The notes under the pieces were generated by a model. That model worked only from the letters and a program-made list of their open reading frames with translations, was not told the origin of the DNA and ran no database searches. Below, one piece after another: positions 2,880-54,628 of a DNA stretch of 64,000 nt (positions are counted from its first letter, which is position 1; each line of letters begins with the position of its first letter). The position numbers and the translations under genes are program-made. Source of the DNA: a virus; the IMG/VR virus record IMGVR_UViG_3300034072_000926, positions 41,621-105,620 of that record. One strand, given 5' to 3'.

Positions 2880-3410
2880 TTACGTAGTTTTCTTTGCCGC
2901 CGGCGCAACAATCGCAAAGAGCTGTCGCTCACTGCGGGCAACCGGGCGCTCAAACTTGAAATCTGTGAGGAATCCCAAGAAATCATTCATCACGCTGGCA
3001 CCAACATCCAAGTGCGTGATTTCACGGCCCTTGAACTTGATGATGATCTTGACCTTGTCGCCTTCATCCAGGAAACCCTGTGCGCGCTTGGCCTTGACCT
3101 TGAGGTCATTCATGTCTGTGGTAGGGCGAAGCTGAATCTCTTTCAGTTCAACCCTCGACTCCCTGGACTTCTTGGCAGCTTCCTTTGCACGACGACTCTC
3201 GTCATACTTGAACTTGCCATAATCCAGGATTTTGCAGACTGGCATACCGTTAGCCATATTGATAGCTACGAGATCCAGGCCTACCTGACGGGCCCGGTTT
3301 CGAGCGTCGATCAGTGAAACTACACCAATCTGCTCACCAGTGTCAGCAATGAGACGTACTTCTTTTGCGCGGATCTGATCATTCACCGCATACTTAAAAT
3401 TCACAGACAA
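2880..3410 (-). CDS. infC: translation initiation factor IF-3 homolog
   Basis: 176 aa; alignable over full length with bacterial IF3 (IRAKEVRLI..GEQIGVVSL..A...A...GLDLV.I......PVCKILDYGKFKY...R.......KE..KEIQLRP.TD..D..VK......FL.EGDKVKI...F.GRE..H...G..V); both N and C domains present. Confidence 0.88.
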   Translation of the reverse strand: MSVNFKYAVNDQIRAKEVRLIADTGEQIGVVSLIDARNRARQVGLDLVAINMANGMPVCKILDYGKFKYDESRRAKEAAKKSRESRVELKEIQLRPTTDMNDLKVKAKRAQGFLDEGDKVKIIIKFKGREITHLDVGASVMNDFLGFLTDFKFERPVARSERQLFAIVAPAAKKTT

Positions 3411-3467: not shown

Positions 3468-4718
3468 TCAAGCTACTTTTGGGTTCTCGAAAACCACAAC
3501 AGGCTCTGCTGTTCCTTCAATGACATCCTTCGTTACTCGGATGGTAACTGCGCCTTGATCCTTCAGATCAGGTAGGTCATATTGGACCTGGATGAGACGC
3601 TTCTCAATAACGCTCCTCAGACCACGCGCACCAGTCTTACGGGTAATAGCGTCGACCGCGACAGCCTTGAGTGCTTCGTCGTCAAATTCAAGCGAGATGT
3701 TCTCAAGCTGGAACATCTTAGAGAACTGCTTCACAAGTGCATTCTTTGGTTCAGTGAGAACACGAACCAACTGCTCCTGGTCTAGCTCTTCCAAGCTAGT
3801 GATAACCGGAAGACGACCCACTAGCTCTGGAATCAAACCGAACTTCTGAAGATCTTCTGGCTCTACGCTATTAAGCAATTTGCTTGAGACCTTGCTGTTG
3901 TCTCCCTTAACGGAAGCACCAAAGCCGATGCTACCCTTGCCCTTGTTCATACGCTTGCCGATGATTTCATCCAAGCCCACGAATGCACCGCCAACAATGA
4001 ACAGGATGTTCTTCGTATTCACTACGGCCATCTCTGCATTTGGATGCTTACGGTTACCCTGTAGGGGCACACGAACTTCACTACCCTCGATAATCTTCAG
4101 CAAAGCTTGCTGAACACCCTCGCCTGACACGTCGCGGCTAATGGACGCGCTATCACCCCTACGGGCTTTCTTATCTACTTCGTCGAGGTAGATAATACCA
4201 CGCTCGGCCTTCGCCACATCATTATCGCATACCTGGAGCAAGCGAGAGATGATGGTCTCAACGTCATCACCCACATAACCAGCCTCAGTCAGCGAAGTCG
4301 CGTCAGCAATTGTGAATGGAACGTCGAGCAACTTCGCGATGCTCTTGGCCATGAGGGTCTTACCAGAACCGGTTGGGCCGAGCAGAAGGATGTTGGACTT
4401 TTCAAGCTCAACATCGTCAACCACAGGATTGGCTAGACGCTTGTAGTGATTATGAACCGCAACTGCCATGACCATCTTGGCATCATTTTGACCAATCACA
4501 TACTGGTCAAGAAACTCTCGGATTTGACGAGGGCTAGGAATCTCACCATCTTTGAGAGACATCTTGGTCTCTGCATTAGTGTCTTCCTTGAGGATGTCAG
4601 CACAAAGCTGGACACAGTCATTGCAGATAAAAACATCAGGTCCAGCAATCAGCTTCTGGACATGTTCTTGCTTCTTTCCGCAGAAGCTGCACGTTAGGGA
4701 CTTTTTGTTCTCGCTCAT
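3468..4718 (-). CDS. clpX: ATP-dependent Clp protease ATP-binding subunit ClpX
   Basis: 416 aa; N-terminal C4 zinc finger CSFCGK..CNDC; Walker A LLLGPTGSGKTLMA; full-length ClpX-like (IGF-loop region, sensor motifs). Confidence 0.9.
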   Translation of the reverse strand: MSENKKSLTCSFCGKKQEHVQKLIAGPDVFICNDCVQLCADILKEDTNAETKMSLKDGEIPSPRQIREFLDQYVIGQNDAKMVMAVAVHNHYKRLANPVVDDVELEKSNILLLGPTGSGKTLMAKSIAKLLDVPFTIADATSLTEAGYVGDDVETIISRLLQVCDNDVAKAERGIIYLDEVDKKARRGDSASISRDVSGEGVQQALLKIIEGSEVRVPLQGNRKHPNAEMAVVNTKNILFIVGGAFVGLDEIIGKRMNKGKGSIGFGASVKGDNSKVSSKLLNSVEPEDLQKFGLIPELVGRLPVITSLEELDQEQLVRVLTEPKNALVKQFSKMFQLENISLEFDDEALKAVAVDAITRKTGARGLRSVIEKRLIQVQYDLPDLKDQGAVTIRVTKDVIEGTAEPVVVFENPKVA

Positions 4719-13771: not shown

Positions 13772-15127
13772 ATGACCCAAAATAGCTCAAATTATATCCT
13801 AGACACATCTCGCGAATATTCTATCTACGTATGTGAATCCCGTGCAATTCCTAAGGTCACAGACGGCCTAAAGGATGCTCAGCGCAAAGCGCTCTGGCTC
13901 GTTAAGAGCAAAGCCGAAAAGATCAAGACCGTATCGTTGGCTGGTGAAATGATCTCCAGCGGACTATATCTGCACGGCGACGCATCTGCCGCCGGTGCTA
14001 TCTCGATGTTGGCTGCACCCTATGTCAATAACGTCCCGCTCCTTGATGGTATTGGTTCGTTTGGCACTCGTGTTGCGCCCGTTGATGGCATTGGTGCTCC
14101 TCGCTATACCTATGTGAAGCGTGGTAAGGCTGCGCTAGAACTCATGTTCCCAGACATGGACATCGTCCCCGTAAAGGAGAACTACGATGGATCTACCATC
14201 GAGCCTCAGCATTTTCTTCCACTTATTCCCACGGTTCTGCTCAACGGAGTCAGTGGCATCGCTGTTGGTTGGAGTACTGAAATTCTACCCCGTAGCTTCA
14301 AGAGCCTCATTGATGCTACCATAGCAATTCTTGATGGGAAGACGATCAAGCGTATCCCTCCCAGCTACGAACTCTACAATGTTGGTGTGAAGCACCTTGA
14401 GGAGAACTCTTGGGAGTTCACTGGTAAGTTGGAGATCGTTGATACCTCGACGATCAAGATCACTGAGCTACCTCCTGAACTGACCCTTGAGAAGTTCAAG
14501 GAACGACTCAATACATATGAGGACGAGAACCGAATCTCGACCTATACCGACCGTTCCACTGACACCATCGACATCACGATCAAGATGGCACGTGGCACTG
14601 TTAAGGGCTGGTCGGAATCTCGCGCAATCGAATACTTCAAGCTGAAGCAGAAGAAGAGCGAGCGTATTGTTGTCATCGACTGGAACAACACATCTATCCG
14701 TCAGTATGAGAACGCTGAACAGCTAGTCAAGGACTTTGTTGCTTGGCGTTTGGAATGGTATAAGACCCGCTACGAACACAAGCTGACCAAGGATGATTAC
14801 GAGCTTGGTTTCTGGAAAGGTGTTAAGGCTTGCTTCGATGACAAGCTTCCTGCTCGTTTGGGTTCGATCAAGAGTCGTGCTGATCTAGATGCTGATGTTC
14901 GTGTGGTTGCAGAAGCCAAGAAGGTCATCTTGGATGACAAGCGTATTGATCGCATTGTCAACTTGCCAGCACATCGTTGGACCAAAGATGCTTACGCAGA
15001 TGTGTTGGCTAAGATCAAGGAACTCGAAGCTAACATCAAGGATTACAAGGCCATTTTGAAGGACCCTGAGAGGCGCAAGTCGATCTATAGGGAAGAGCTA
15101 GAAACTCTCAAGAAGGTTAAGTTCTAA
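13772..15127 (+). CDS. DNA topoisomerase II medium subunit (T4 gp52-like, GyrA-like)
   Basis: 451 aa; N-terminal RAIPKVTDGLKDAQRKALW motif of type IIA topoisomerase A subunits; catalytic Tyr region. Confidence 0.85.
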   Translation: MTQNSSNYILDTSREYSIYVCESRAIPKVTDGLKDAQRKALWLVKSKAEKIKTVSLAGEMISSGLYLHGDASAAGAISMLAAPYVNNVPLLDGIGSFGTRVAPVDGIGAPRYTYVKRGKAALELMFPDMDIVPVKENYDGSTIEPQHFLPLIPTVLLNGVSGIAVGWSTEILPRSFKSLIDATIAILDGKTIKRIPPSYELYNVGVKHLEENSWEFTGKLEIVDTSTIKITELPPELTLEKFKERLNTYEDENRISTYTDRSTDTIDITIKMARGTVKGWSESRAIEYFKLKQKKSERIVVIDWNNTSIRQYENAEQLVKDFVAWRLEWYKTRYEHKLTKDDYELGFWKGVKACFDDKLPARLGSIKSRADLDADVRVVAEAKKVILDDKRIDRIVNLPAHRWTKDAYADVLAKIKELEANIKDYKAILKDPERRKSIYREELETLKKVKF

Positions 15128-15130
15128 AGC

Positions 15131-15160
15131 AATGGGGAGGCCAAAGCCTCCCCATTCTCA
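15131..15160. terminator. bidirectional rho-independent terminator between convergent genes
   Basis: AATGGGGAGGC-caaa-GCCTCCCCATT perfect 11-bp stem. Confidence 0.5.
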
Positions 15161-15162
15161 TA

Positions 15163-16560
15163 TCAGTCCCGACGCATGTCCATTTCGACATCGCCACAAT
15201 AGGCAGTCTTGGCCGAAACCTTGTAGGTCTCGAATGTCAGACCATCCATGATCTTTGCCTTTGCCGTGACCGAATCAGTTGAGGTATAGCTATACCGAGT
15301 CGACTGAAGCGGCACGAACAGCTTCTCGTCCAGCTTGCTGACGTCATAGTAATAGAGCCAGAGGTCATCCCGGATAGAGCTCCAGGAATTTGCCGGCGGT
15401 GCTGCGCTCCGTGCATTATACCAGTCTTTGATATCGAAGCACACCGCCTTCCCTGACATCCTGACGAAGCCCGACTTGGCCTTGATCGAGGCCGGCTTGT
15501 TGGCGAGAAGATCATCGAAGGTGTGTTCGACCTTCTCGATAGTGATGTCTCCTTCAACTGGCTTGTTCGACGTTACCGCGTAGGTGCGAACATAGTAATC
15601 GTTGGAGTTCTCACTGATCCCGTTGCTCTTGCCGTTGTTCAGGAACTGGTTGAGCTCCTGTTCGCTTGCTTCCTGGGTTCCAGGGGTGTCAGTCGGGGTG
15701 ATCTCAGCAATCTTCGGCGTGGCAACCGCGAAGTAGCCATTGCGACTGCCAGGATAGGCAAACACATAACGCTTCTTGTCGCCAATCTTGGCCTGGAAGT
15801 TGTTGGCGCTGCCCGATGCCTTGATGAAGTAGAAGACCCCGAGGTATCGACCTTCATCGCCATTCTGGAACACCACGTGGTCGCCGATGTTGAGTTCCTT
15901 GAGGCTGACCTTTTTCGCAGCACGTTCGGTATTCGCTTGAGCTGCCTTGTAGGCGTCGCTCTCGACCGGGACCAGGATGTTCTCACTACCCAGACGACCC
16001 CAGATAAGCTGTTCCTGGATCTCGCCCTTCTCCATCGTGCAGAGCATCAGGATCTGAGCAAAGTTCGCGCTGCTGATCTCGAGCTCGAAACCACGGGGAT
16101 CTTCGATGCGCCACTTCACATTGCCGTTGCCGAAAGAAGCATAACGACGCACTTCGCGCGACAGCTTGAAGCCGACCATCGGCTTGTTCTCATAGGAGAC
16201 GCCGGGAATGGAAGTGTACGACCGTGACGCATGGTCATAGACCTGTGCCCACTTGTCAACGCTTTCCTTGCGCTTCTTTGCCGCAGCATCAGTGCCGTCC
16301 GGCGTCATGAAGCCCAGAGGAGTATTATCCTGCGAGGGACGACTCTGGAATCCCACATAGTGCTGAGCAGGGAACTTGATATCCTTGTTGTCTGCGCCTA
16401 CTTTACTCATAAGGCCCCTTACTGGCTTTGGAGTTTGATATACATTGCATACCGCTTCTCGATCTTTTCGATCGCTTCGAGATACGGTGCTGCGGCTTCT
16501 TCTGCGGCTTTCTTTTTCGCCGCGTTCATTTCCAGTTTGAGTTCCTGGATCTGATTCCAC
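15163..16560 (-). CDS. hypothetical protein (465 aa; true start may be an internal Met)
   Basis: long ORF; basic/Ser-Arg-rich first 50 aa look non-protein-like; no motif recognised. Confidence 0.45.
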   Translation of the reverse strand: MESDPGTQTGNERGEKESRRRSRSTVSRSDRKDREAVCNVYQTPKPVRGLMSKVGADNKDIKFPAQHYVGFQSRPSQDNTPLGFMTPDGTDAAAKKRKESVDKWAQVYDHASRSYTSIPGVSYENKPMVGFKLSREVRRYASFGNGNVKWRIEDPRGFELEISSANFAQILMLCTMEKGEIQEQLIWGRLGSENILVPVESDAYKAAQANTERAAKKVSLKELNIGDHVVFQNGDEGRYLGVFYFIKASGSANNFQAKIGDKKRYVFAYPGSRNGYFAVATPKIAEITPTDTPGTQEASEQELNQFLNNGKSNGISENSNDYYVRTYAVTSNKPVEGDITIEKVEHTFDDLLANKPASIKAKSGFVRMSGKAVCFDIKDWYNARSAAPPANSWSSIRDDLWLYYYDVSKLDEKLFVPLQSTRYSYTSTDSVTAKAKIMDGLTFETYKVSAKTAYCGDVEMDMRRD

Positions 16561-16655
16561 ATGTCCGTGATAGCCGTGCCTTCCGAGAGGATTTCCTGCT
16601 CGGTCGTGCCCGACTTGGACATCAATTGCTTGCGAACGGTGGAGAGAATGCTCAT
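16419..16655 (-). CDS. small coiled-coil protein
   Basis: 78 aa; ATGA start/stop overlap with the upstream gene supports it. Confidence 0.35.
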   Translation of the reverse strand: MSILSTVRKQLMSKSGTTEQEILSEGTAITDMWNQIQELKLEMNAAKKKAAEEAAAPYLEAIEKIEKRYAMYIKLQSQ

Positions 16656-17152
16656 GCGATCTGCACCGTTATACCAGCCTGACGGAGGTAATTAACGGCC
16701 TCGAGGATCTTTCGATTCCACGCTTCGGCGGCAAGGTCCATAGGCTTATCGGGCATCGAGACGCTGACCCACTGGTTCACGCAACTCTCAATGGCATGCT
16801 TGGCTTCAACGAGCCCCATGCCCGTCAGACCGCGCAGTTCCTTGATCGCGTTGATCTTTTGCCACTGAGTAGTCCCATCGACATATAGTCGCAAAGTCTT
16901 CGCATTGGGGAACTTGTTGGACACAATGCCCATAATGAGGCGTGCCTTCCAGTCCTTGCCGAGGATCGGCGCGAGGGCTTCCAGGACTTCGATCGAGGTG
17001 TCTCGGGTATAGAACTGCTTGATAACGCGCAGAAAAGAAGCCGAAACTTCGTCGAGCGCGAAGAACTGATCGTCCTCAGTTTCAGGGTCAATGAGTGCCA
17101 CGGTATCTCCTTTGATTCGCCGCAGCTCTACACTCCTTGCACCGCTTGTCAA
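16652..17152 (-). CDS. protein with ribosomal L7/L12 C-terminal-domain-like region
   Basis: 166 aa; KINAIKELRGLTGMGLVEAKHAIES closely parallels L7/L12 CTD ([25 protein letters not shown]); C-terminus ..AGITVQIA like ..AGAEVEVK. Confidence 0.5.
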   Translation of the reverse strand: MTSGARSVELRRIKGDTVALIDPETEDDQFFALDEVSASFLRVIKQFYTRDTSIEVLEALAPILGKDWKARLIMGIVSNKFPNAKTLRLYVDGTTQWQKINAIKELRGLTGMGLVEAKHAIESCVNQWVSVSMPDKPMDLAAEAWNRKILEAVNYLRQAGITVQIA

Positions 17153-17796
17153 CCTTTCATATAAGTATTGTGCTGAAAAGAATATCTTGTTATTGTGGTT
17201 TAATGCCTTGGACTTTTGAACAGCGCATCCAGAGGGCTTGTCAGGCCCTCTTAGATCGAAGTGAACTTGAGGACTCTCAGGTAGAGACGCTCAAGCGACC
17301 GCTCTTCTTTGGCAAATATGCCATGGGCGTTGGCTTGTCTCTTGCACTAGATCGCTGGGGTGACTGGTTTGAGGTCAAGGATCAGGTTCATTCTCTTTTG
17401 GATGGGCTTGATACTGTGGTTCAGAGCAATCGTAAAACCTATCAATTCAATATATTCTCCAGCGATGTTACGGTTCTGCGTCGATTGATGAAGACGAGTT
17501 TCTTCACCTTCAATCACGTTCGAATCGTTGACAAAACTTGTTGGCATCTTTCTCTCCCGAAGCCCAAGCCCAAGGCTAAGTTCTACGGAGAGTTCGGGTG
17601 GAGGTTCTCTTTCAAGGACCCACACTGGGGTGATGTTAAGGAGAATATTGAATTGTTGGAAGGGTTGTCTGGGACCTACAAGTTAGTCACTCAGCCACGC
17701 ACTTTCATCTACCTCTCTATTCTCTCGGATGTTCTGCTCATAAAACTCGTCGCAAGCGAGCAACTGTTGAGCTTGGATGACCGGCACACCTTGTAG
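17137..17796 (+). CDS. hypothetical protein (219 aa)
   Basis: ORF track; no motif. Confidence 0.4.
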   Translation: MHRLSTFHISIVLKRISCYCGLMPWTFEQRIQRACQALLDRSELEDSQVETLKRPLFFGKYAMGVGLSLALDRWGDWFEVKDQVHSLLDGLDTVVQSNRKTYQFNIFSSDVTVLRRLMKTSFFTFNHVRIVDKTCWHLSLPKPKPKAKFYGEFGWRFSFKDPHWGDVKENIELLEGLSGTYKLVTQPRTFIYLSILSDVLLIKLVASEQLLSLDDRHTL

Positions 17797-17865
17797 GGTT
17801 GGTTGACAACCCTAGTGTCCACCAAGTATATTGAGAGATAGTATCAACAATTCATGAGGTGATGG

Positions 17866-18408
17866 TTGAAATTAACAGGAGTATTGGTGCTCCTCTCGTT
17901 CCTATTGCTGACGCCAAAACCAGCCGAAGCCGGAACACTACCTAAATACCAAACGCTGCATACTGCGGTCCGTTCACTGAACACGCTCATCCCTGAGATC
18001 AGTGCTGCTAATCGGACCGAACAAGAACAGATGTTGTGCCTCGCACTAAACATCTATCATGAGATTCGTGGGGGGACACCGCGTGATCAGTGGGCAGTTG
18101 CTTTTGTGACACTAAACCGAACCAAGCGTAGCGCCTTCAAAGCGCGCAATGTTTGTGATGTCGTTTGGGCACCAGGGCAATTTAGTTGGACTAGGTGGGC
18201 AATGAGGGCACAGTTGCCACGTGAGAATGGATCATGGAAGGAAAGTCAAAGAAAAGCCTTCCTACTTCTCAGTGGTGAGAAAATGAATGACCCTACGAAC
18301 GGCTCGACGCATTTCTATCAGGCAAGGTTGAATCCTGGTTGGGCCCGTCGCTTAGTTAATAAGGTTCGTATCGGAAGCCATATGTTTGCGAGTTTACCAG
18401 GCAGGTAA
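17866..18408 (+). CDS. SleB-like cell wall hydrolase (Hydrolase_2 family) with N-terminal signal peptide; probable endolysin
   Basis: MKLTGVLVLLSFLLLTPKPAEA signal; LALNIYHEIRG, AVAFVTLNR, APGQFSW, THFY motifs of SleB/CwlJ family. Confidence 0.7.
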   Translation: MKLTGVLVLLSFLLLTPKPAEAGTLPKYQTLHTAVRSLNTLIPEISAANRTEQEQMLCLALNIYHEIRGGTPRDQWAVAFVTLNRTKRSAFKARNVCDVVWAPGQFSWTRWAMRAQLPRENGSWKESQRKAFLLLSGEKMNDPTNGSTHFYQARLNPGWARRLVNKVRIGSHMFASLPGR

Positions 18409-18446
18409 ACTGGGTTTGCCCATTAACTCAAATCCCATAGAAAGGT

Positions 18447-18480
18447 AGAGCCCGGCTTTTAGGCCGGGCTCTTTGTTTCT
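18447..18480 (+). terminator. rho-independent terminator
   Basis: AGAGCCCGGC-ttttag-GCCGGGCTCT 10-bp stem followed by TTGTTTCT. Confidence 0.6.
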
Positions 18481-18497
18481 GCAATGTTTAGGAAGAA

Positions 18498-19055
18498 TTA
18501 CCCTAGGTAAATTGCACTATTTGCACCATGCTCGAAGCATTCAACGCTCACGAGACGCACATCAGGGTTAACCGCATAACGACCTAGTTCGCCCTTCTTC
18601 ATCTTCTCAAGAAGTTCGACGGACTTGTCATAGACTAGCTTGGCGGTCAATTCACAACCCACCCCAGGAACGATACGGAGATCGCACAGACGTCCGACAG
18701 AATAAGGAGTCGGTGTGAAACCGCTGCCGTCTTCTTCGCTAGAAGCTTTGCCATTCCAATTTGCATCTAGAGCAAACTTTGCAAAGGTTTCAAATACTTC
18801 ACGCGCAGGATCATCCTCAGCGACCAAGATCGTGTGGTCAAACATATGATCTAGATAAGCCTTAATGGGCTTCATTCCGCCGAAGTCGAAACACCAGTTC
18901 TTTTCATCAAGCGTTTCAGACTCGAAAACAAACTTGAAGCCTAGCGAGTAGCCATGAAGCGTTGAGCAATGGCTGTGATTTGCCTTCCACTGACGGAAGC
19001 AGCAGGAGAGTCCACGGTCAGTGCCGTAGGTTTTGGTCGATTGATACTTTGCCAT
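18498..19055 (-). CDS. queD: 6-pyruvoyl-tetrahydropterin synthase / QueD-like
   Basis: 185 aa; CxxxHGH-type motif (HSHCSTLHGYS), zinc-binding His pattern and size consistent with PTPS/QueD. Confidence 0.65.
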   Translation of the reverse strand: MAKYQSTKTYGTDRGLSCCFRQWKANHSHCSTLHGYSLGFKFVFESETLDEKNWCFDFGGMKPIKAYLDHMFDHTILVAEDDPAREVFETFAKFALDANWNGKASSEEDGSGFTPTPYSVGRLCDLRIVPGVGCELTAKLVYDKSVELLEKMKKGELGRYAVNPDVRLVSVECFEHGANSAIYLG

Positions 19056-19205
19056 TTTATGTTCTCTTTATCTGGCAACCAGAATCTTTAGAGAGGGTTG
19101 AGTTATTGTCCTCTTATGTCATTTATACAGAAACAGGTGATTAGGCGCAATATATGCGTTGATAATTTCCACCTTAAATAGGATGAACCCTAGAAGGAGA
19201 ATCTT

Positions 19206-19700
19206 ATGGAACTCGGTATCACACAGCCACACATGGCATATCGTTTCAGGCTCGCCAAGTGTCAGCGTTCAATTACTCAGAACGTTGAAACGGTCGAGAT
19301 CGAGAACGTGGCCAAAACTATCAAGATCAAAGTCCGTTCCACTATCCTAGGAAATGACTACGCTGATGCTGTCGCGTTCGCTGATAACAGATCATTTGTG
19401 ATCGATGCGCTTGATGGTATGGGCAATCCTTACTTCGTTATCAAGCCTCTCGAACTGGTCTGCACCTCACACCTGACCAGCTTTGAATATGGTAATTCTG
19501 GCACCTTGTATCACTATTATGAATTCAAATACGATTATATGGGCGTATTCGTGTCAGAAGACGAACAGCCGAATGTTCTGCCAATGGCAAGCGATCCCAA
19601 CTTCCCATCTATTGCAGAGGCTATGGCTGAGTTGGAAAAGAAAGTGACTTCCGCGGCCGAACAAGTTAATAAGGATGATCTAGACAAGGGTACGGAATAA
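19206..19700 (+). CDS. hypothetical protein (164 aa)
   Basis: ORF with TTAAATAGG late-like motif about 30 nt upstream and GGAG RBS. Confidence 0.45.
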   Translation: MELGITQPHMAYRFRLAKCQRSITQNVETVEIENVAKTIKIKVRSTILGNDYADAVAFADNRSFVIDALDGMGNPYFVIKPLELVCTSHLTSFEYGNSGTLYHYYEFKYDYMGVFVSEDEQPNVLPMASDPNFPSIAEAMAELEKKVTSAAEQVNKDDLDKGTE

Positions 19701-19704
19701 AGCA

Positions 19705-20076
19705 ATGCGTGGGCTCACTCCTGACGAACGTGAGATGTGGTCGAAAGTAACCAAGGACGTCACACCCCTTGGTTCTACCCCTATGAGCCCCGTAGAGCAG
19801 TCAATCGTGCTTCCAGCAACCACACCGCGCGCAAAACCTTTCCGACCCGTATTGGACTTGCATGGGCTTACTTTGCACGATGCTTATAATCGTTCAGTTT
19901 CCCATATCGCTAATGCGGCCGGAAAGTATCGCTATGTGGTCATTATTACTGGCTTGAGCGGGCAGATCAGAGAAGAGTTTCCTAAGTGGTTCTCTAATCA
20001 CGCACTCGTGAGATCGATTAACTCACTACGAGGCGGAGGAGCCTGGGAAGTATGGCTGAAGAAAAGAGATACGTAG
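19705..20076 (+). CDS. Smr domain protein
   Basis: LDLHGLTLHDA...YVVIITGLSG...RGGGAWEVWL matches Smr (MutS2 C-terminal) signature. Confidence 0.65.
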   Translation: MRGLTPDEREMWSKVTKDVTPLGSTPMSPVEQSIVLPATTPRAKPFRPVLDLHGLTLHDAYNRSVSHIANAAGKYRYVVIITGLSGQIREEFPKWFSNHALVRSINSLRGGGAWEVWLKKRDT

Positions 20077-21178: not shown

Positions 21179-21462
21179 TTTCCGCCGAACCGCAACTTGA
21201 ACAAAGCCGCGAGATCCTTGCTTGGGAAATAGAACTTAGTGACTTCGTATTCACCGTTCTCTGTCGAGCAGGACATATCGAATCCGTGGGCATCGCACCA
21301 ATCAACAACTTCAGGCCCAACCTTGTAGTTGAATGTGTCTCCATATTTGCCACAGGGAACCTTGATCAGGTACGGACGAATATCGAAGACTAGTTCAAAC
21401 TTTCCTTGCCGCTCCTTTTTAAGATTGGCAAGGAAAGCCTCGACTTGCTCTCTGGAAGCCAT
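21175..21462 (-). CDS. FKLxWGG-tail paralog family member
   Basis: C-terminus LAALFKLRFGGK; likely ATG at 21462 forming TAATG with CCA-enzyme stop (track start 21516). Confidence 0.55.
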   Translation of the reverse strand: MASREQVEAFLANLKKERQGKFELVFDIRPYLIKVPCGKYGDTFNYKVGPEVVDWCDAHGFDMSCSTENGEYEVTKFYFPSKDLAALFKLRFGGK

Positions 21463-22616
21463 TATTCGACCTCCAGCAGTTCTTCCTTGGTCTTCGTCCA
21501 GCGACTGAACGTCCAAGCCTGCTTCATCCGATTCAGCTTCTGACCCATTTCCGGACCGGGCTTCATGCCCATATCCAGCAAGTCCTTACCACGAACCGGG
21601 AAGGTCGGGATCTCGAAGTTGCGAGCATAATCGGCCAGCAACGTCTCGCCCTGCACTTCTGCAAAGCTCACGACATGATCCCGAGGGAACTCGTCCCGAG
21701 TCAGCATCACTTCGATCCGCTGTTCGTCCAGGAACACGCCGCGGTTGCGGATCATGTTCCGAACCTTTGCCTCTTCCGGCGAGCTCATCTTCCAGAACTT
21801 GAAGAACTTCTCTTCATCAGTGCTGGCGACCAGCGTAGCCAGTGCGGCCAGCGCATCATCGGCACGGGTCAGTTCAGCGGGGTTGAAGCGGAAGATGCCC
21901 AGTGCCCGATTGACCTGAGTCTTGAAGATCGCGTCCACGATCCGCGTCCGACCCGGCATCTTGGGATCCAGCAGCTTCTGCATTTCCAGCCAGAACCGCT
22001 CAACGCTTACGACGTTCAGCTTGTCCAGAACTTCACCCTCAGCGAAGATATCCAGCGTGTCCTGATCCATCGAAGCATCGAATCGTGCTGCGAAGCGGAA
22101 GTAGCGCAGGATACGCAGGTAGTCCTCTTCAACGCGCTTGCGCGCATCGCCGACGAACCGAACGACCTTGGCTTCCAGATCCGCCCGACCATTGAAGTAG
22201 TCGAAGACTTCGCCCTTCATGTCCATCGACATTGCGTTGATGGTCAGGTCGCGCCGTTCTGCATCGACTTCGAAGCTGCGAGTGAATTCCACCGTTGCAT
22301 GACGACCGTCAGTCTCAGTGTCGATCCGCAGCGTGGTGACTTCGAAGGGTTCGCCATCAACGACCAGCGTAGCCGTGCCGTGCTGGATACCGGTCGGGAT
22401 AAAACCGAACTTGTTGATCTCTGCGATGATCTTCATTTCGTCCGGCGTTGCATCGGTTGCGAAGTCGATATCCTTGGGTTCCACACCCAGCAGCGCATCA
22501 CGAACACAGCCGCCGACGAACCGGACCTCATGACCCGCCATATCGAAGGCTTTCATCAGCTTCTTCGTCTTCGGGGTCATCAGTTTGTCCAGCATGTCGA
22601 TCTCCTTGTTGTTCAT
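21462..22616 (-). CDS. cca: CCA-adding tRNA nucleotidyltransferase
   Basis: 384 aa; FVGGCVRDALLG...DIDFAT head-domain motifs of class II CCA/poly(A) polymerase family. Confidence 0.85.
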   Translation of the reverse strand: MNNKEIDMLDKLMTPKTKKLMKAFDMAGHEVRFVGGCVRDALLGVEPKDIDFATDATPDEMKIIAEINKFGFIPTGIQHGTATLVVDGEPFEVTTLRIDTETDGRHATVEFTRSFEVDAERRDLTINAMSMDMKGEVFDYFNGRADLEAKVVRFVGDARKRVEEDYLRILRYFRFAARFDASMDQDTLDIFAEGEVLDKLNVVSVERFWLEMQKLLDPKMPGRTRIVDAIFKTQVNRALGIFRFNPAELTRADDALAALATLVASTDEEKFFKFWKMSSPEEAKVRNMIRNRGVFLDEQRIEVMLTRDEFPRDHVVSFAEVQGETLLADYARNFEIPTFPVRGKDLLDMGMKPGPEMGQKLNRMKQAWTFSRWTKTKEELLEVE

Positions 22617-31118: not shown

Positions 31119-32870
31119 TTAGAGTTCGTCGGGATTGATACCAGCCAGCTTCTGCAGCTCTGCCTTTTCCTGTGCCGAAATTGCTTCGGCCGAACCACGG
31201 GCCTTACGGACCGGAGCAGTCCTCACCGGCGCAGGAGCACCAACAACTTCCAGCGAACCATCTTCGTTCAGCGGAGCAGCGGCAGCTTCGACCAGACCGT
31301 TCAGACCACGGCTCAGGTCAACACCCAGTTCGCGAGCCATTTCGTCAATGACCGGAACCTGCAGTCGGTAACCCAGCATCGAGTTGGTCAGGTCAGTTGC
31401 GAGATTGCCAGTGGTCTGAGTGCCACTGATTGCGCCTTCGCCGGCCTGGCCACCAAGGCCGCCCAGACCACCCATCTGCACAACGCGGATGCTGTCGACC
31501 TTCTCCATCGGCTTGGTCATCTTTTCCATGATGGTCGGCATGGATTCGATAAGCGCCTTGCGGAGGTTGTAAGCCATCTGCGCCGGAGTGACGACGTTAG
31601 CAGCTTCGTTGAGGGCGCGCTGACCTTCGGATTCAACTTCATAACGCTTTGCGTCAGCGTCGATGAGTCGTTCCTTGGCCTTAGCCTGCGAGTCGGCAGC
31701 TTCGAGCTCAGCAGCAGCCATAACGCGGATACGAGTTGCTTCCTGTTCAGCTGCCTGCTCTGCCTGGATGACCGCAACGCGCTTTGCACGTTCTGCCGAA
31801 GCCTCAGCTTCAACGGTCTTCACTGCTTCAGTTGCACGAACCTGTTCTGCACGAGCATTGTCTGCTGCTGCGCGGGCCTTCGATTCCTGCTCCGACTTCT
31901 CAGCAACAGCAATACGCGACTGCTGGCTTGCAATCTCGAGAGCCTGAGCTGCCTCAGTCTCAGAGACCTTGATTGCGCGCTCCTTAGCAACGCGAGCCTG
32001 TTCGGTCGTCTTGGCGGCTTCGATTTCGGCCAGGTCCGATTCACGCTTGCGCTCTGCACGGGTCTGAGCCAGTTCAGCTTCCTGAGCTGCACGACGGGTT
32101 TCGACTTCACGCTGCTGTTCGAGGGTAGCGAACTCGTTCTGCTGCTTGATTTCCAGCGAACGCTTGTTGGCTTCGAAGTTCTTCTGCTCAATCGCAACGC
32201 GGTTGTCAGCTTCGATTTCGTTACGCTCCTTACGACGCGTCTCAGTGACCTGAGTCAGCTTCGCAAGACCTTCAGCGTCGAAGGCGTTGTTGGGGTTGAA
32301 GAACTTAACGTCCGTCTGGTCAAGACCAGTCAGCGAGACCGATTCCAGTTCCAGGCCGTTCTTCTTCAGGTCTTCCGCAACAGTGTTCTGAACCTTCTGA
32401 ACGAAGTCACCGCGCTTTTCATGCAGGTCCTGCATGTCCATCGAAGCAGCCGCAGCGCGCAGGGCGTCGACGAACTTACCTTCGACCAGACCAGCAAGCT
32501 GATCAGGTGCCATCGTGCGACGGCCAAGGGTCTGTGCCGCAGTGGCAATTGCAGTAGCATCAGGCGCGACGCGAACATAGAACTCTGCACGAACGTCGAC
32601 GCGCAGCCGGTCCTTGGTGATCAGCGAAGCTTCGCCACCGCCACGCTGAACAGTGAGGCGCAGGGTCTGCATATTGATCGGGATAGTTTCGTGCAGGATA
32701 GGAAGCACGATTGCACCGCCGTCCTTCACAACCTTTTCGCCGCCGAAACCGGTGCGGACGAAAGCCAGTTCCTTCGATGCACGATGGAACATCTTGGTCA
32801 TGATTAGGCCGAGGACGATAATTCCAAGGACAATCACGCCTGTAACAATTAGGCCAAACTGAAGACTCAT
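31119..32870 (-). CDS. flotillin-like SPFH/band-7 protein (YqiK-like)
   Basis: 583 aa; N-terminal TM, SPFH domain, long E/A/R/K-rich coiled-coil (flotillin repeats). Confidence 0.8.
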   Translation of the reverse strand: MSLQFGLIVTGVIVLGIIVLGLIMTKMFHRASKELAFVRTGFGGEKVVKDGGAIVLPILHETIPINMQTLRLTVQRGGGEASLITKDRLRVDVRAEFYVRVAPDATAIATAAQTLGRRTMAPDQLAGLVEGKFVDALRAAAASMDMQDLHEKRGDFVQKVQNTVAEDLKKNGLELESVSLTGLDQTDVKFFNPNNAFDAEGLAKLTQVTETRRKERNEIEADNRVAIEQKNFEANKRSLEIKQQNEFATLEQQREVETRRAAQEAELAQTRAERKRESDLAEIEAAKTTEQARVAKERAIKVSETEAAQALEIASQQSRIAVAEKSEQESKARAAADNARAEQVRATEAVKTVEAEASAERAKRVAVIQAEQAAEQEATRIRVMAAAELEAADSQAKAKERLIDADAKRYEVESEGQRALNEAANVVTPAQMAYNLRKALIESMPTIMEKMTKPMEKVDSIRVVQMGGLGGLGGQAGEGAISGTQTTGNLATDLTNSMLGYRLQVPVIDEMARELGVDLSRGLNGLVEAAAAPLNEDGSLEVVGAPAPVRTAPVRKARGSAEAISAQEKAELQKLAGINPDEL

Positions 32871-33871: not shown

Positions 33872-34031
33872 ACTTCTACTTATCGAGCAGACATGAGTAA
33901 CCCAGGAGGTTTTTAATCCTCCTGGGTCATTCCGACCTTCGGCATTTGAGAGACTACCGAGGGCTGTGATTTATATAATGTGGGGAGAAGTGAGTTGCAA
34001 GACTTGCAATTGCAATAAGCAACTTAATCTG

Positions 34032-34104
34032 TGCTGTCTATGGGACTTGAACCCATGACCTCTTCATTACCAATGAAGTGCTACTACCACTGAGCTAAGA
34101 CAGC
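34032..34104 (-). tRNA. tRNA-Thr (anticodon GGU)
   Basis: 73 nt cloverleaf with 7-bp acceptor stem GCTGTCT/AGACAGC, anticodon stem CTTCA/TGAAG, loop TTGGTAA, T-arm ATGGG-TTCAAGT-CCCAT; CCA not encoded. Confidence 0.8.
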
Positions 34105-44963: not shown

Positions 44964-46595
44964 TCAACGATAAGAAGTGCGAGTCGTGACCTTCTTCTTT
45001 CCTACAGCCTGACGAGCAGCAATCCTGAACTCATCCAAGCTACCATATTCCATTTCAGCTTGCTGAATGATGGCTTCGTGAATTGTTTCATTGTCATCGA
45101 AATGCTTCTGACAAACTGCACGAATAGCCTGGAAGACCGATGCCTGTGGATTGTTCTTCAGAGTTTCCTTCACAATACGCAGAGCAGCAGCCAACTGACC
45201 ATTAGTTAAGCCGTGTTGGCCGGCCGCACTAGCCTCTTCCAGTTCCTCCTGCTCAAGTGCTTCAGCGAGCCCCTTAGATAGGGCCTCAAGACGTGCGCGG
45301 GTTTCATGCACGCTTGGCGTGCCTTGGTTCACATAGGACCCTTGCTGAACGCCTGCGAGCTTCGCAACTTCCTGAACCTGCTGGGCAAAGAAGACGTCTT
45401 CGGTCGTGTCTTCTTCAACGACTTCGTCCTCTTCGACTTCTTCGTGGAACTGACGATATTCACCAGTTGGCATAACGTCAATGCCTAGCACATAGGCGCC
45501 TTCAGCAATCTCAATAGGATGTTCGCCACTTGCGACCTTAGTTGCAATCACGCGAGCATCGCCGTAAGTCGTGAAGCCTTCCTGGACTAGTTGAACCCTA
45601 GTGCCAGCTGTTGCCCACTTTGGCTGTTCGACTGTGCCGATATTTTCCATGATCTGGGTGTGAACCACCACTGCAAAGTTGTTAGCCTCCATGATGGCCT
45701 CCTCTAGTTCTTCTGTTTCATTAAGTTCTGGATCTCCTGCAAGGCCTTGCAGATCGCAATCACCTGTAGTGAGATCATCAATGCTTTCGTCCATTTGTTC
45801 ATCGAACTGGTCCTCAGTATCGGTCAAAAGCGCATCAGTTTCCATCATGTAATGGAGGGCCTGAGCTTTGAACTCTTCTTCTGACAAAGTGGAAAATTCC
45901 TGCATGTAAGGTGTTGCCTGATAGTGCCCATAGGCTCTTTCAAGAATAGTCTCAACTGGCAAACCTTCATCCATACCACCCCACTCTAGACATTCTAGAA
46001 GGTCACCTTTGTATAGACCATTTCCGATGTCAGCAAGACCTTCGGCGAGACTTTCAGAAATCTTTTTCGCAATCATAAGTGGACTCTTTACCCCTTGGGT
46101 CACATAACCCTTCCTCTTGAATTCAGCGAAGGTCTTTTCATTTGTTAGCATCGCACTGCTATTCGAGGCAGAGAATGCAATGACCTGGAAGTGTTCCATA
46201 TCAAACTCAGTCACGCCGCCATACATCACAGTTGGCTTGAACGTAACTTCTTTGAAAGCCTTGATTGCTTCATCCTTAGTCGAATAGCCAAGCATGACCT
46301 TGTCTTCGTCAAACTTCGAACCATCGACAGTTAGCTGATGAACCACATAGACCTTGGCGCCCTTCTTTGGATTCTTCCTCAGATAGCAATCAAGGTGTTC
46401 GCCGTCAGGACTATGGGTTCCCTTGATATAACCGTAATGTGCTGGGACTTTGATTGCCCATTCATCACCGGTCTTCTTGTTCTTGCCCCTGCGATAACCA
46501 CCAGCAGGGACTTCAATGGAAATATCTAGTCCTTCGAAGTGCTGACGGCTATGAAGCTTCGCCTCATTGAGCTGTTTGAAAAATTCCATACTCAC
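44964..46595 (-). CDS. large acidic protein with N-terminal inorganic-pyrophosphatase-like domain
   Basis: 543 aa; IEVPAGGYRRGKN...AHYGYI.GT.SPDGEHLDCYL parallels family I PPase motifs; acidic central region. Confidence 0.45.
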   Translation of the reverse strand: MSMEFFKQLNEAKLHSRQHFEGLDISIEVPAGGYRRGKNKKTGDEWAIKVPAHYGYIKGTHSPDGEHLDCYLRKNPKKGAKVYVVHQLTVDGSKFDEDKVMLGYSTKDEAIKAFKEVTFKPTVMYGGVTEFDMEHFQVIAFSASNSSAMLTNEKTFAEFKRKGYVTQGVKSPLMIAKKISESLAEGLADIGNGLYKGDLLECLEWGGMDEGLPVETILERAYGHYQATPYMQEFSTLSEEEFKAQALHYMMETDALLTDTEDQFDEQMDESIDDLTTGDCDLQGLAGDPELNETEELEEAIMEANNFAVVVHTQIMENIGTVEQPKWATAGTRVQLVQEGFTTYGDARVIATKVASGEHPIEIAEGAYVLGIDVMPTGEYRQFHEEVEEDEVVEEDTTEDVFFAQQVQEVAKLAGVQQGSYVNQGTPSVHETRARLEALSKGLAEALEQEELEEASAAGQHGLTNGQLAAALRIVKETLKNNPQASVFQAIRAVCQKHFDDNETIHEAIIQQAEMEYGSLDEFRIAARQAVGKKKVTTRTSYR

Positions 46596-52721: not shown

Positions 52722-52967
52722 ATGGGTGATCTATTCAAAAGTGTAGTCGAAATGATCGCGAAGGGCGAAGCAGGAGCTCTGACGGCTATTCTCCTAGCTA
52801 TCATTGGTGTCTTGGGTTGGTATTGTTTTCGCCTGATGAAGCAACTGGAAAAGAAGGACGAGAAGATCTATAAGATCATCGACGACTATTCCAAGAACAA
52901 CATCACTATCACTGACGCTCTAAACGGCCTCAAGACGGTGCTTATTGAGATTAAGGCAAAGCTCTAA
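52722..52967 (+). CDS. small single-TM protein
   Basis: 81 aa; LTAILLAIIGVLGWYCF TM; TAATG overlap with the PAS gene. Confidence 0.4.
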   Translation: MGDLFKSVVEMIAKGEAGALTAILLAIIGVLGWYCFRLMKQLEKKDEKIYKIIDDYSKNNITITDALNGLKTVLIEIKAKL

Positions 52968-54628
52968 TGTGGTTTAAAGATCGGAAGGAAAAGAAGAAGC
53001 AGCGTGAAGCTGTTTTGAAAGCGGCGCTTGACTCTAGCGAAGCCCTTGAAAAGGCCGCTAAAGGCACGATGAACCTTGCCGAAGATGTAACCAAAACCCT
53101 TCAAAGCAAAATTGACGACTATGCTCGGCAGATTGACCAAACGTCTAGTCTGCTGAGCGACGCTCTCATTCTAGTTGATGACCACGGAGTCATCGAAAGT
53201 TTCAATCCAGCGGCTGAAAAGATGTTTGGTATTGCTAGGAGACATATCAGGGGGAAGAGCATTTCTAAGCTCTTCGAATTCCCCAAAGATACTATCATCG
53301 ACCCAGTGTTCATGGATGAACTAACCGTAAAGGTCAATGAGAATGATCCTGCAGCCACTGTCCATTATGAAGACTTCATGGGCATCCGTAAAGATGGCAT
53401 GACTTTCCATGTGGACGTCAGTGCCAGCAAATTCACCAGGAACAACTCGAAAGTCCATTACATCATCCTAGTCCACGATGTGACCCACAAGGTGGCGAAT
53501 AGCAAAATGGTCGAAGATCTTGCTCAGAGGAACATGGAACTCCTTGCTACCATTGATGCATCAAATACCGGATTCATTATCCTAAGCCCTGATGGTAGCG
53601 ACTTCAAGATCAACTTCGTCAACATGGGCTTTAGTCGTCTCACTGGGTATTCTAGGACTCAGATCAAGAATATGAGCCTTATGGATCTTCTTGGCATCGA
53701 GCAAACTTTCTGGTCGGTTCGTCGTAGCCTTCTTGAACAGAAAGAAGCACGTCACGAAGTCCAGCTAGAGATCGGAACATGTCAGACTATCTGGTTTGAC
53801 ATTCAGATCACACCAGTGTTCAACGATGGTATCTGTAGTCAGTGGATCTTAGTGTTCTATGACACTACTGCACTAAAGAAAGCATATCACGATCTCAGGA
53901 AGAGCGAATCACATTTCAAGGCGTTTAGTGATGCAAGTTCCGAGTCCATGCTTATCCACAACTTTGGTCAGGTCATTGATTGGAACGATCGCCTCAACGC
54001 ATTGACTGGCTATACAGATGAAGAGATTGAGAAACTCATGCCTCTTGATCTTGTCCATCCTCTCGAACGTGAGAAGATCAGAGAAGAGGTTCATTTAACT
54101 GGTAACAATAGCTATGAAACGCTATTCATGACCAAACAAGGCGATGTTCGTGAGGTTGCAATCAACAGTCGTTCCATTGAATGGGATAACACTGATGCAA
54201 GGATTTCAATTGTTCGAGATGTAACCGAATACAAGGATATCGAGACTCAGTTGAAGACTGCAAGGGAGCGTTATCGCACGGTCATCGATAACACGATCGA
54301 TATGGTCATTTGCTTCAATAGCGATTTCGAGATTACCTTCTCGAATCAGACCTTCCGTGACTACTATGAAGTAGAGCTAGAAGACATCAATGGGTTCTCA
54401 CTCTTGGAGATCATCCCTGAGACTGACCATAAGAAGTTCAAGGAATATATGATGGAGATCGCCCCTGGGAATGATGTTCGTCGAGGTATTCACCGTGTCC
54501 AGCGTCATGGAGACATTAGGATGCAGGATTGGATCGACCGTGGCATCTTTGATGAAGATGGAAATCTCATTGAAATTCAGAGTGTTGCTCGAGACGTAAC
54601 TAGCCTTTTGCCTCCACCTACTACTTGA
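52967..54628 (+). CDS. four-PAS-domain protein without recognisable output domain
   Basis: 553 aa; four repeats of about 110 aa each with a PAS-like core (..D..G.I...N......G........G........). Confidence 0.65.
   Translation: MWFKDRKEKKKQREAVLKAALDSSEALEKAAKGTMNLAEDVTKTLQSKIDDYARQIDQTSSLLSDALILVDDHGVIESFNPAAEKMFGIARRHIRGKSISKLFEFPKDTIIDPVFMDELTVKVNENDPAATVHYEDFMGIRKDGMTFHVDVSASKFTRNNSKVHYIILVHDVTHKVANSKMVEDLAQRNMELLATIDASNTGFIILSPDGSDFKINFVNMGFSRLTGYSRTQIKNMSLMDLLGIEQTFWSVRRSLLEQKEARHEVQLEIGTCQTIWFDIQITPVFNDGICSQWILVFYDTTALKKAYHDLRKSESHFKAFSDASSESMLIHNFGQVIDWNDRLNALTGYTDEEIEKLMPLDLVHPLEREKIREEVHLTGNNSYETLFMTKQGDVREVAINSRSIEWDNTDARISIVRDVTEYKDIETQLKTARERYRTVIDNTIDMVICFNSDFEITFSNQTFRDYYEVELEDINGFSLLEIIPETDHKKFKEYMMEIAPGNDVRRGIHRVQRHGDIRMQDWIDRGIFDEDGNLIEIQSVARDVTSLLPPPTT

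Follow-up and report, generated by a model that had tools for sequence, protein, structure and literature searches.

Bacteriophages are known to carry domains of the ribosomal stalk protein bL12 (L7/L12). Mizuno et al. (2019, Nat Commun) described bL12 domains embedded in unrelated phage polypeptides with the factor-binding residues kept, for example in Salmonella phage FSL SP-076 (AGF88397), Ralstonia phage RSB3 and N4-like roseophages; the cultivated examples are all smaller than 80 kb, and the role proposed for these proteins is that of a translation-factor interface (PMC6375957). Phage proteins with a bL12 domain are also routinely mentioned as auxiliary genes (PMC11934525). In bL12 itself, helices 4 and 5 form a conserved, positively charged binding site common to IF2, EF-Tu, EF-G and RF3 (PMC6753160). 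Here we describe a gene on the minus strand of a 64,000-nucleotide (nt) stretch of viral DNA (positions 41,621 to 105,620 of IMG/VR record IMGVR_UViG_3300034072_000926; this whole stretch is called the window, and coordinates refer to it). The gene encodes a soluble protein of 149 amino acids (aa) with two domains. By profile comparison and predicted structure, residues 67–149 are a complete though diverged homologue of the bL12 C-terminal domain (CTD), and this domain stands on a different, phage-specific N-terminal domain (NTD). We offer the finding as a correct domain annotation together with a functional inference, namely that the protein may engage translational GTPases away from the stalk. 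Residues are numbered in the 149-aa protein; adding 17 gives the 166-aa numbering of a previous, sequence-only reading of this DNA.

The protein alone matches Pfam Ribosomal_L12 (PF00542) with 30.5–30.8 bits against a gathering cut-off of 25.9 (E=4.7e-7), over profile positions 11–37 only, and the same cut-off is passed by all 43 family members (43/43; best E=1.1e-12). When the protein was compared with all PDB sequences by phmmer, the top 12 matches were bL12 chains. A family profile made from 43 sequences found Thermotoga bL12 (1dd3) in the PDB at E=1e-10, aligned over bL12 residues 57–120, which is the whole CTD including strand 1. A 67-sequence family alignment was then compared by hhalign with four bL12 sequences entered by hand, giving Prob 97.7% and E=2.5e-12; the alignment begins at residue 76, reaches the final strand (LRQAGITVQI vs LEEAGAEVEV) and includes the C-terminal ..AG..V.I ending noted in the sequence-only reading. 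Within the 25-residue motif, 14 residues are identical to E. coli bL12 (a hand count on the alignment of that reading, not tool output), and tblastn gave 54% identity over 26 aa. The single-sequence Pfam match, aligning 27 residues only, might be taken for a chance resemblance in a non-functional open reading frame (ORF). This explanation is hardly credible and was ruled out, because the profile and structure comparisons extend the match to the whole domain and the gene is conserved across many phage genomes, with purifying-selection-like patterns.

The predicted structure was obtained twice. A first AlphaFold model, built on four sequences, was mediocre (predicted local distance difference test, pLDDT, 68), with the β-α-α-β-α-β order already present for residues 69–148. 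The second (md38661587ab5), built on the 67-sequence alignment, reached a mean pLDDT of 88 and shows a CTD with the two-layer β-α-α-β-α-β fold of the Ribosomal_L12 CTD superfamily. In a Foldseek search of the first model against the PDB, bL12 came out on top (1dd3, and 1ctf at TMt 0.65), followed by ClpS. The profile and Foldseek checks suggested in the sequence-only reading thus gave a Ribosomal_L12 profile match and the bL12 fold in first place, not a ClpS-like fold only, and the L7/L12 CTD-like module that it had claimed is borne out by PF00542, the profile search of the PDB, hhalign and the predicted fold. Against predicted viral structures (BFVD), the best match was A0A6J7WGF4, aligned over its full length (E=7.8e-8, 138 columns), and the next were other phage proteins called ‘bL12 C-terminal domain-containing’. 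A ClpS-like adaptor was ruled out by the identities in the structure-based comparison (27% to bL12, 9–11% to ClpS) and by the Pfam profile of ClpS, which had no match at E<=10 in the protein and none in the family members tested.

The extent of the gene had to be corrected. The ORF list of the window contains a 166-aa frame at 16652..17152 (−) when it is opened at TTG 17152, the start adopted in the sequence-only reading. The frame is real; its start is most likely GTG 17101, giving 149 aa. We placed the gene accordingly because the N-termini of the four closest database homologues coincide with the GTG start (M-[AP]-L-[IL]-D-P), as do those of all homologues under the wider pattern M-[AP]-L-[IL]-[DN]-P, and because the gene model for a near-identical protein (P0001; 99%, one residue different) in GCA_902726455.1 (contig CACUZI010000001.1, 389,450 bp) also has 149 aa. 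On the minus strand, a strong Shine-Dalgarno sequence, AAAGGAG, lies 5 nt ahead of GTG 17101, and a TTGACA hexamer, which might be read as a −35 element, begins with TTG 17152. A weak TAGAGC follows TTGACA after 16 nt, and the pair may be a candidate promoter for the set of three co-directional genes formed by the L12-like gene, p78 and p415 (Table 1). A consensus promoter scan called no full promoter at 17102–17152, and the promoter/terminator scan was without significant signal.

The NTD, an acidic tail followed by a three-helix bundle, is predicted with a pLDDT of 83–93 in the second model and carries a conserved motif, L-x-x-x-L-G-K-D-W. It is joined to the CTD by a linker of about 8 residues (SNKFPNAK), and neither the sequence nor the model has the long, flexible, Ala/Gly/Pro-rich hinge of bL12 between the domains. 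Because HMMER alignments ran collinearly into bL12 helix 2, and because one family member touched Pfam Ribosomal_L12_N (PF16320), the NTD was tested as a diverged form of the dimerisation and uL10-binding NTD of bL12. Aligned to E. coli bL12, the family profile is collinear back to bL12 residue 20 (VELISAMEEKFG vs VEVIEALKEVLG), and the alignment to Mycoplasma bL12 (phmmer vs PDB) likewise reached into the N-terminal part. The PF16320 contact was made by 1 of the 43 members at E=0.036, which is chance level. A profile of the NTD only found no bL12 in the PDB at E<=10 and nothing else of significance, the best match being a chance HEAT-repeat match (E=0.08), and hhalign of the NTD against bL12 gave a Prob of only 0.5%; these two results ruled out a diverged bL12 NTD. 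The NCBIfam rplL equivalog TIGR00855 scored 24.1 bits against a cut-off of 84.4, and only residues 74–107 align. Since the N-terminal profile, hhalign and TIGR00855 tests all failed, the protein is, by these comparisons, not a bona fide bL12. The sequence-only reading had been right that the N-terminus is unrelated to the L10-binding NTD and wrong about its length: it let the L12-like domain begin at about residue 100, whereas the domain begins at about residue 67 of 149 aa (about 84 in the 166-aa numbering), and therefore the unrelated part comprises about 66 aa, not about 100. As a separate observation, a 637-aa protein (P0148) contains repeats that end in ‘LIPLLGYDWK’ and lie just below the cut-off of the Pfam HA (helicase-associated) domain; the repeat resembles ‘LAPILGKDWK’ of the phage NTD six times, by homology or as a short convergent motif.

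The same tests bear on the possibility that the protein replaces the stalk, serving as a surrogate bL12 in host ribosomes with its NTD on the C-terminal helix of uL10 or at another ribosomal site, and so alters factor recruitment. In favour of this, a phage bL12-domain protein was found in purified 70S ribosomes by mass spectrometry (Mizuno et al., PMC6375957), the phage also encodes IF3, and the family profile is collinear with E. coli bL12 as described above. We nevertheless consider it unlikely, given the N-terminal profile and hhalign results, the chance-level PF16320 contact, the TIGR00855 score and the short linker in place of the Ala/Pro-rich hinge through which the CTD of bL12 gains its reach to the factors. 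Moreover, the tagged phage protein of Mizuno et al. was unusable for ribosome purification (PMC6375957).

What the phage protein shares with bL12 is the factor-binding surface. In the weighted 67-sequence alignment, no part of the protein is as conserved across the phage family as the residues of helices 4 and 5. The helix 4-turn-helix 5 motif (QKINAIKELRGLTGMGLVEAKHAIES) contains fourteen (near-)invariant residues, K82, I83, A85, I86, K87, R90, G94, G96, L97, E99, A100, K101, V104 and E105, whose E. coli bL12 equivalents are, in the same order, K65, V66, V68, I69, K70, R73, G77, G79, L80, E82, A83, K84, V87 and E88. Conservation within the family amounts to 84–100% at K82, I83, I86, K87, R90, G96, L97, E99, A100, K101 and E105. 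The factor-binding residues of helices 4/5 in the Ribosomal_L12 CTD superfamily are thus retained. Further conserved positions are L139, G143 and V146 in the core and S20, Y31 and G48 in the NTD. Residue-level mutagenesis of the factor-binding helices of bL12 has reportedly been carried out by Kothe et al. in 2004 and by Helgstrand et al. in 2007, and isolated bL12 reportedly raises the GTPase activity of EF-G (Savelsbergh et al. 2000). The conservation is distributed differently over the two domains: identity in the NTD is 75% within the huge-phage clade and 15% between clades, that in helices 4/5 is 68% and 60%, and that in the rest of the CTD is about 33% and 20%, respectively. An NTD kept within a clade only, together with helices 4/5 kept across clades, fits an adaptor with two partners, a host one that is universal and another that is specific to the lineage.

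Our best reading, to which we give about an even chance, is that the protein works away from the stalk, as an adaptor or decoy that engages translational GTPases; the GTPase binding is suggested by residue conservation, and the effect on translation, too, is inferred. The CTD would dock a host translational GTPase (IF2, EF-Tu, EF-G or RF3) through its positively charged helix 4/5 surface. The three-helix bundle would stand in place of the dimerisation/uL10-binding domain and the long hinge of bL12, and would hold the second, lineage-specific partner. The outcome would be either competition with the host stalk for factors or the bringing of a factor to a phage-defined site. A more specific form of this proposal is a ‘free stalk arm’, in which the face of helices 4/5 would bind a host translational GTPase, the likeliest being EF-Tu or EF-G, both abundant, and the NTD would pass it on to a phage-defined partner. 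We regard this form as quite unlikely. If it were true, ribosomes could be biased to phage messages together with the phage IF3, host translation could be shut off through factor sequestration or futile GTPase activation, EF-Tu could be shielded from abortive-infection systems aimed at EF-Tu, and the protein would represent a new class of viral translation-factor hijacker.

Several points weigh against a role as adaptor or decoy for GTPases. First, the local neighbourhood of the gene is one of DNA metabolism, not translation. Second, the fold itself is built around helices 4/5, and part of their conservation is therefore structural. Third, the contacts between the bL12 CTD and the factors are weak and transient, and a free domain acting as a monomer may compete poorly if the NTD does not oligomerise. 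Fourth, since tandem copies of the same helix hairpin are found in many bacterial proteins outside the ribosome, the motif may serve non-GTPase interactions. At last, the docking of GTPases by this family is argued from sequence comparison.

A non-translational use of the domain has to be weighed here. The bL12/ClpS-like fold could be a generic protein-protein module with its helix 4/5 face on a non-GTPase partner, for example as an adaptor for the phage ClpX or another protease, as a partner of the co-transcribed p78 and p415, or as a decoy against a host defence sensor. The phage encodes ClpX, bacteria join tandem L12-CTD units to effector domains of the defence type (P0050: PNP ‘PN-superfamily effector’), and in both clades the genes around the L12-like gene are of the DNA-metabolism or early type. 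We still hold this use to be somewhat unlikely: the protein is closer to bL12 than to ClpS and lacks a ClpS Pfam match (see above), the partner of ClpS is ClpA and not ClpX, the downstream partner genes differ between clades, and the conserved residues, including surface lysines and an arginine, are exactly those of bL12 factor binding.

Table 1. Coordinates of the L12-like gene, its parts and other features of the window
Feature	Position	Strand	Remarks
L12-like gene (two-domain protein, 149 aa)	16652..17101	−	GTG start 17101; stop codon 16652–16654
5' leader, outside gene	17102..17152	−	AAAGGAG 17113–17107; TTGACA 17152–17147
NTD, residues 1–66	16904..17101	−	acidic tail 1–9; three-helix bundle H10–30, H33–47, H49–60
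Short linker and bL12 CTD homologue, residues 67–149	16655..16903	−	E69–74, H82–93, H97–106, E112–115, H125–141, E145–148
Helix 4-turn-helix 5 motif, residues 81–106	16784..16861	−	equals E. coli bL12 residues 64–89
p78 (78-aa helical protein)	16419..16655	−	ATG overlaps the L12-like stop (ATGA); huge-phage clade only
p415 (415 aa)	15163..16410	−	third of three co-directional genes; PHROGs 30990/6266/2475/14061
SleB-type cell-wall hydrolase	17866–18408	+	signal-peptide-like N-terminus
QueD-like 6-pyruvoyl-tetrahydropterin synthase (PTPS)	18498–19055	−	
Smr-domain protein	19705–20076	+	
IF3 (IF3_N + IF3_C)	2880–3410	−	directly downstream of ClpX homologue, same strand
ClpX homologue (ClpX zinc finger + AAA_2)	3468–4718	−	
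PolyA_pol/CCA-type nucleotidyltransferase	21462–22616		
tRNA-Thr	34031–34104		
Flotillin/SPFH protein	31119–32870	−	
InPase-domain protein	44964–46595	−	
Multi-PAS-domain protein	52967–54628	+	

When 1.84 billion representatives were searched exhaustively with a profile, 1325 proteins were returned at E<=1e-3, and about 40 full-length relatives of 130–170 aa were found among the best 150 of these 1325 matches; judged from these sequences, the family is a phage-only one of 130–170-aa proteins. The window is near-identical to the 389-kb phage contig that carries P0001 (compared neighbouring proteins 99.5–100% identical). Megablast of window positions 14000–20000 against GenBank phages gave no nucleotide match, and the sole tblastn match at E<=0.01 among about 50,700 phage records was Sinorhizobium phage Phosso (469 kb), the closest cultured relative, whose gp509 (XYS97666.1, hypothetical protein) is 35% identical.

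A common gene order is found in Phosso, four IMG/VR contigs (104–462 kb) and one 83-kb contig. One strand of this order holds the genes for Smr, the QueD-like PTPS, the SleB-type hydrolase and a 197-aa protein of no assigned function; the L12-like gene, p78 and p415 follow one another in a direction divergent from this set and convergent on the gene for the A subunit of topoisomerase II. Phosso keeps PTPS and Smr, and the SleB-type hydrolase has no match in the Phosso locus. DNA topoisomerase II subunits are among the conserved near neighbours, and the L12-like protein diverges faster (42–59% identity) than its neighbours (Topo A, 83–89%). The p78 protein has a conserved motif, EMNxAKKKAAEEAAxPYLEA, and no Pfam or PHROG match. 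The N-terminal domain of p415, about 200 aa long, occurs in 342 GenBank phage records, where it is always annotated as hypothetical; its carriers are Pakpunavirus, Bastille-like Bacillus phages, Lak phages, and rV5-like and other jumbo phages. Searches of p78, p415 and the upstream 197-aa protein against Pfam, PHROGs, NCBIfam, PADLOC and the PDB returned only function-less PHROGs. In a second clade (contigs of about 20–144 kb), the gene belongs to a group of small early-type genes ahead of a DNA ligase gene and is followed by a gene for a 113-aa protein. A partner gene kept family-wide was ruled out because p78 and the 113-aa protein are unrelated.

The sequence-only reading had placed the gene within a translation-manipulation theme. 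The genes on which this was based, for IF3, a CCA-type enzyme and tRNA-Thr, are indeed in the window; they are not at the locus, lying 4.5–17 kb off, and are not co-operonic with the L12-like gene. The theme is real for the genome as a whole and does not extend to this locus. The window also holds unusual phage cargo, namely the flotillin/SPFH, multi-PAS-domain and InPase-domain proteins.

Phage proteins with a stalk GTPase-docking domain are widespread, and the mechanism discussed for the class is a proposed one. With about 150 aa, two separable conserved surfaces and a cultivable member, Phosso gp509 (on S. meliloti), the present family lends itself to asking cleanly whether proteins of this kind, in the course of an infection, sequester EF-Tu, EF-G or IF2, activate them or direct them elsewhere. 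Should they do so, this would add a route of viral control over host translation beside phage IF3, bS21 and tRNAs.

Compared with bL12 (PF00542; PDB 1ctf, 1dd3, 8yeq), the phage protein shows homology along the whole CTD and the same conserved helix 4/5 residues. It differs in residues inserted between strand 2 and helix C, in a longer helix C, in a basic CTD (isoelectric point 8.9; the bL12 CTD is acidic), in the absence of the N-terminal dimerisation/uL10-binding domain and the hinge, with the TIGR00855 score far below its cut-off (24 vs 84 bits), and in being phage-encoded outside any rplJ-rplL context. From the ClpS N-degron adaptor it is set apart by the low identity, the missing profile match and conserved residues that are bL12-specific. 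The bacterial tandem L12-CTD/DUF6793 proteins (Myxococcota, Actinobacteria) share the unit KIxAIKxxRxxTGxGLxEAKxxVE; they are cellular, have 3–6 units, often the helix hairpin alone, lack the phage NTD and have other partner domains (LRV/HEAT, PNP effector, pentapeptide repeats). Five of these bacterial proteins (P0015, P0023, P0050, P0164 and P0214) contain 3–6 tandem bL12 CTDs or hairpins of helices 4/5 (DUF6793 + PF00542), and such proteins frequently bear the mistaken name ‘ribosomal protein L7/L12’: P0015 combines six L12 CTDs with LRV/HEAT repeats, and P0050 combines a PNP_UDP_1 domain (the PADLOC ‘PN-superfamily effector’ match) with pentapeptide repeats and three L12 CTDs. Nothing useful was found in the literature on DUF6793, on L7/L12 in conflict systems or on L7/L12 of huge phages.

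Closest to the present protein are other phage proteins. A0A6J7WGF4 (‘Ribosomal protein L7/L12, C-terminal’; uncultured Caudovirales phage, 132 aa) has the same two-domain architecture over its full length, A0A6J7WGF4 and Phosso gp509 are 24–35% identical to the window protein, and members of this same family are already labelled ‘L7/L12 C-terminal’ in UniProt and at JGI. The novelty implied in the sequence-only reading has to be lowered, as phage bL12 domains joined to unrelated sequence had been reported by 2019 (PMC6375957). Like the proteins of Mizuno et al., ours is viral and joins a bL12 CTD that keeps the factor-binding residues to non-bL12 sequence; unlike them, it belongs to a different family with a distinct conserved three-helix NTD, and in contrast to the examples below 80 kb this family is present in huge phages (389–470 kb) as well as in smaller phage contigs (about 50–145 kb). 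What is new here is therefore the corrected gene model, the definition of a separate two-domain family whose three-helix NTD is conserved, its presence in huge phages, its two-surface conservation pattern and a cultivable model in Phosso gp509.
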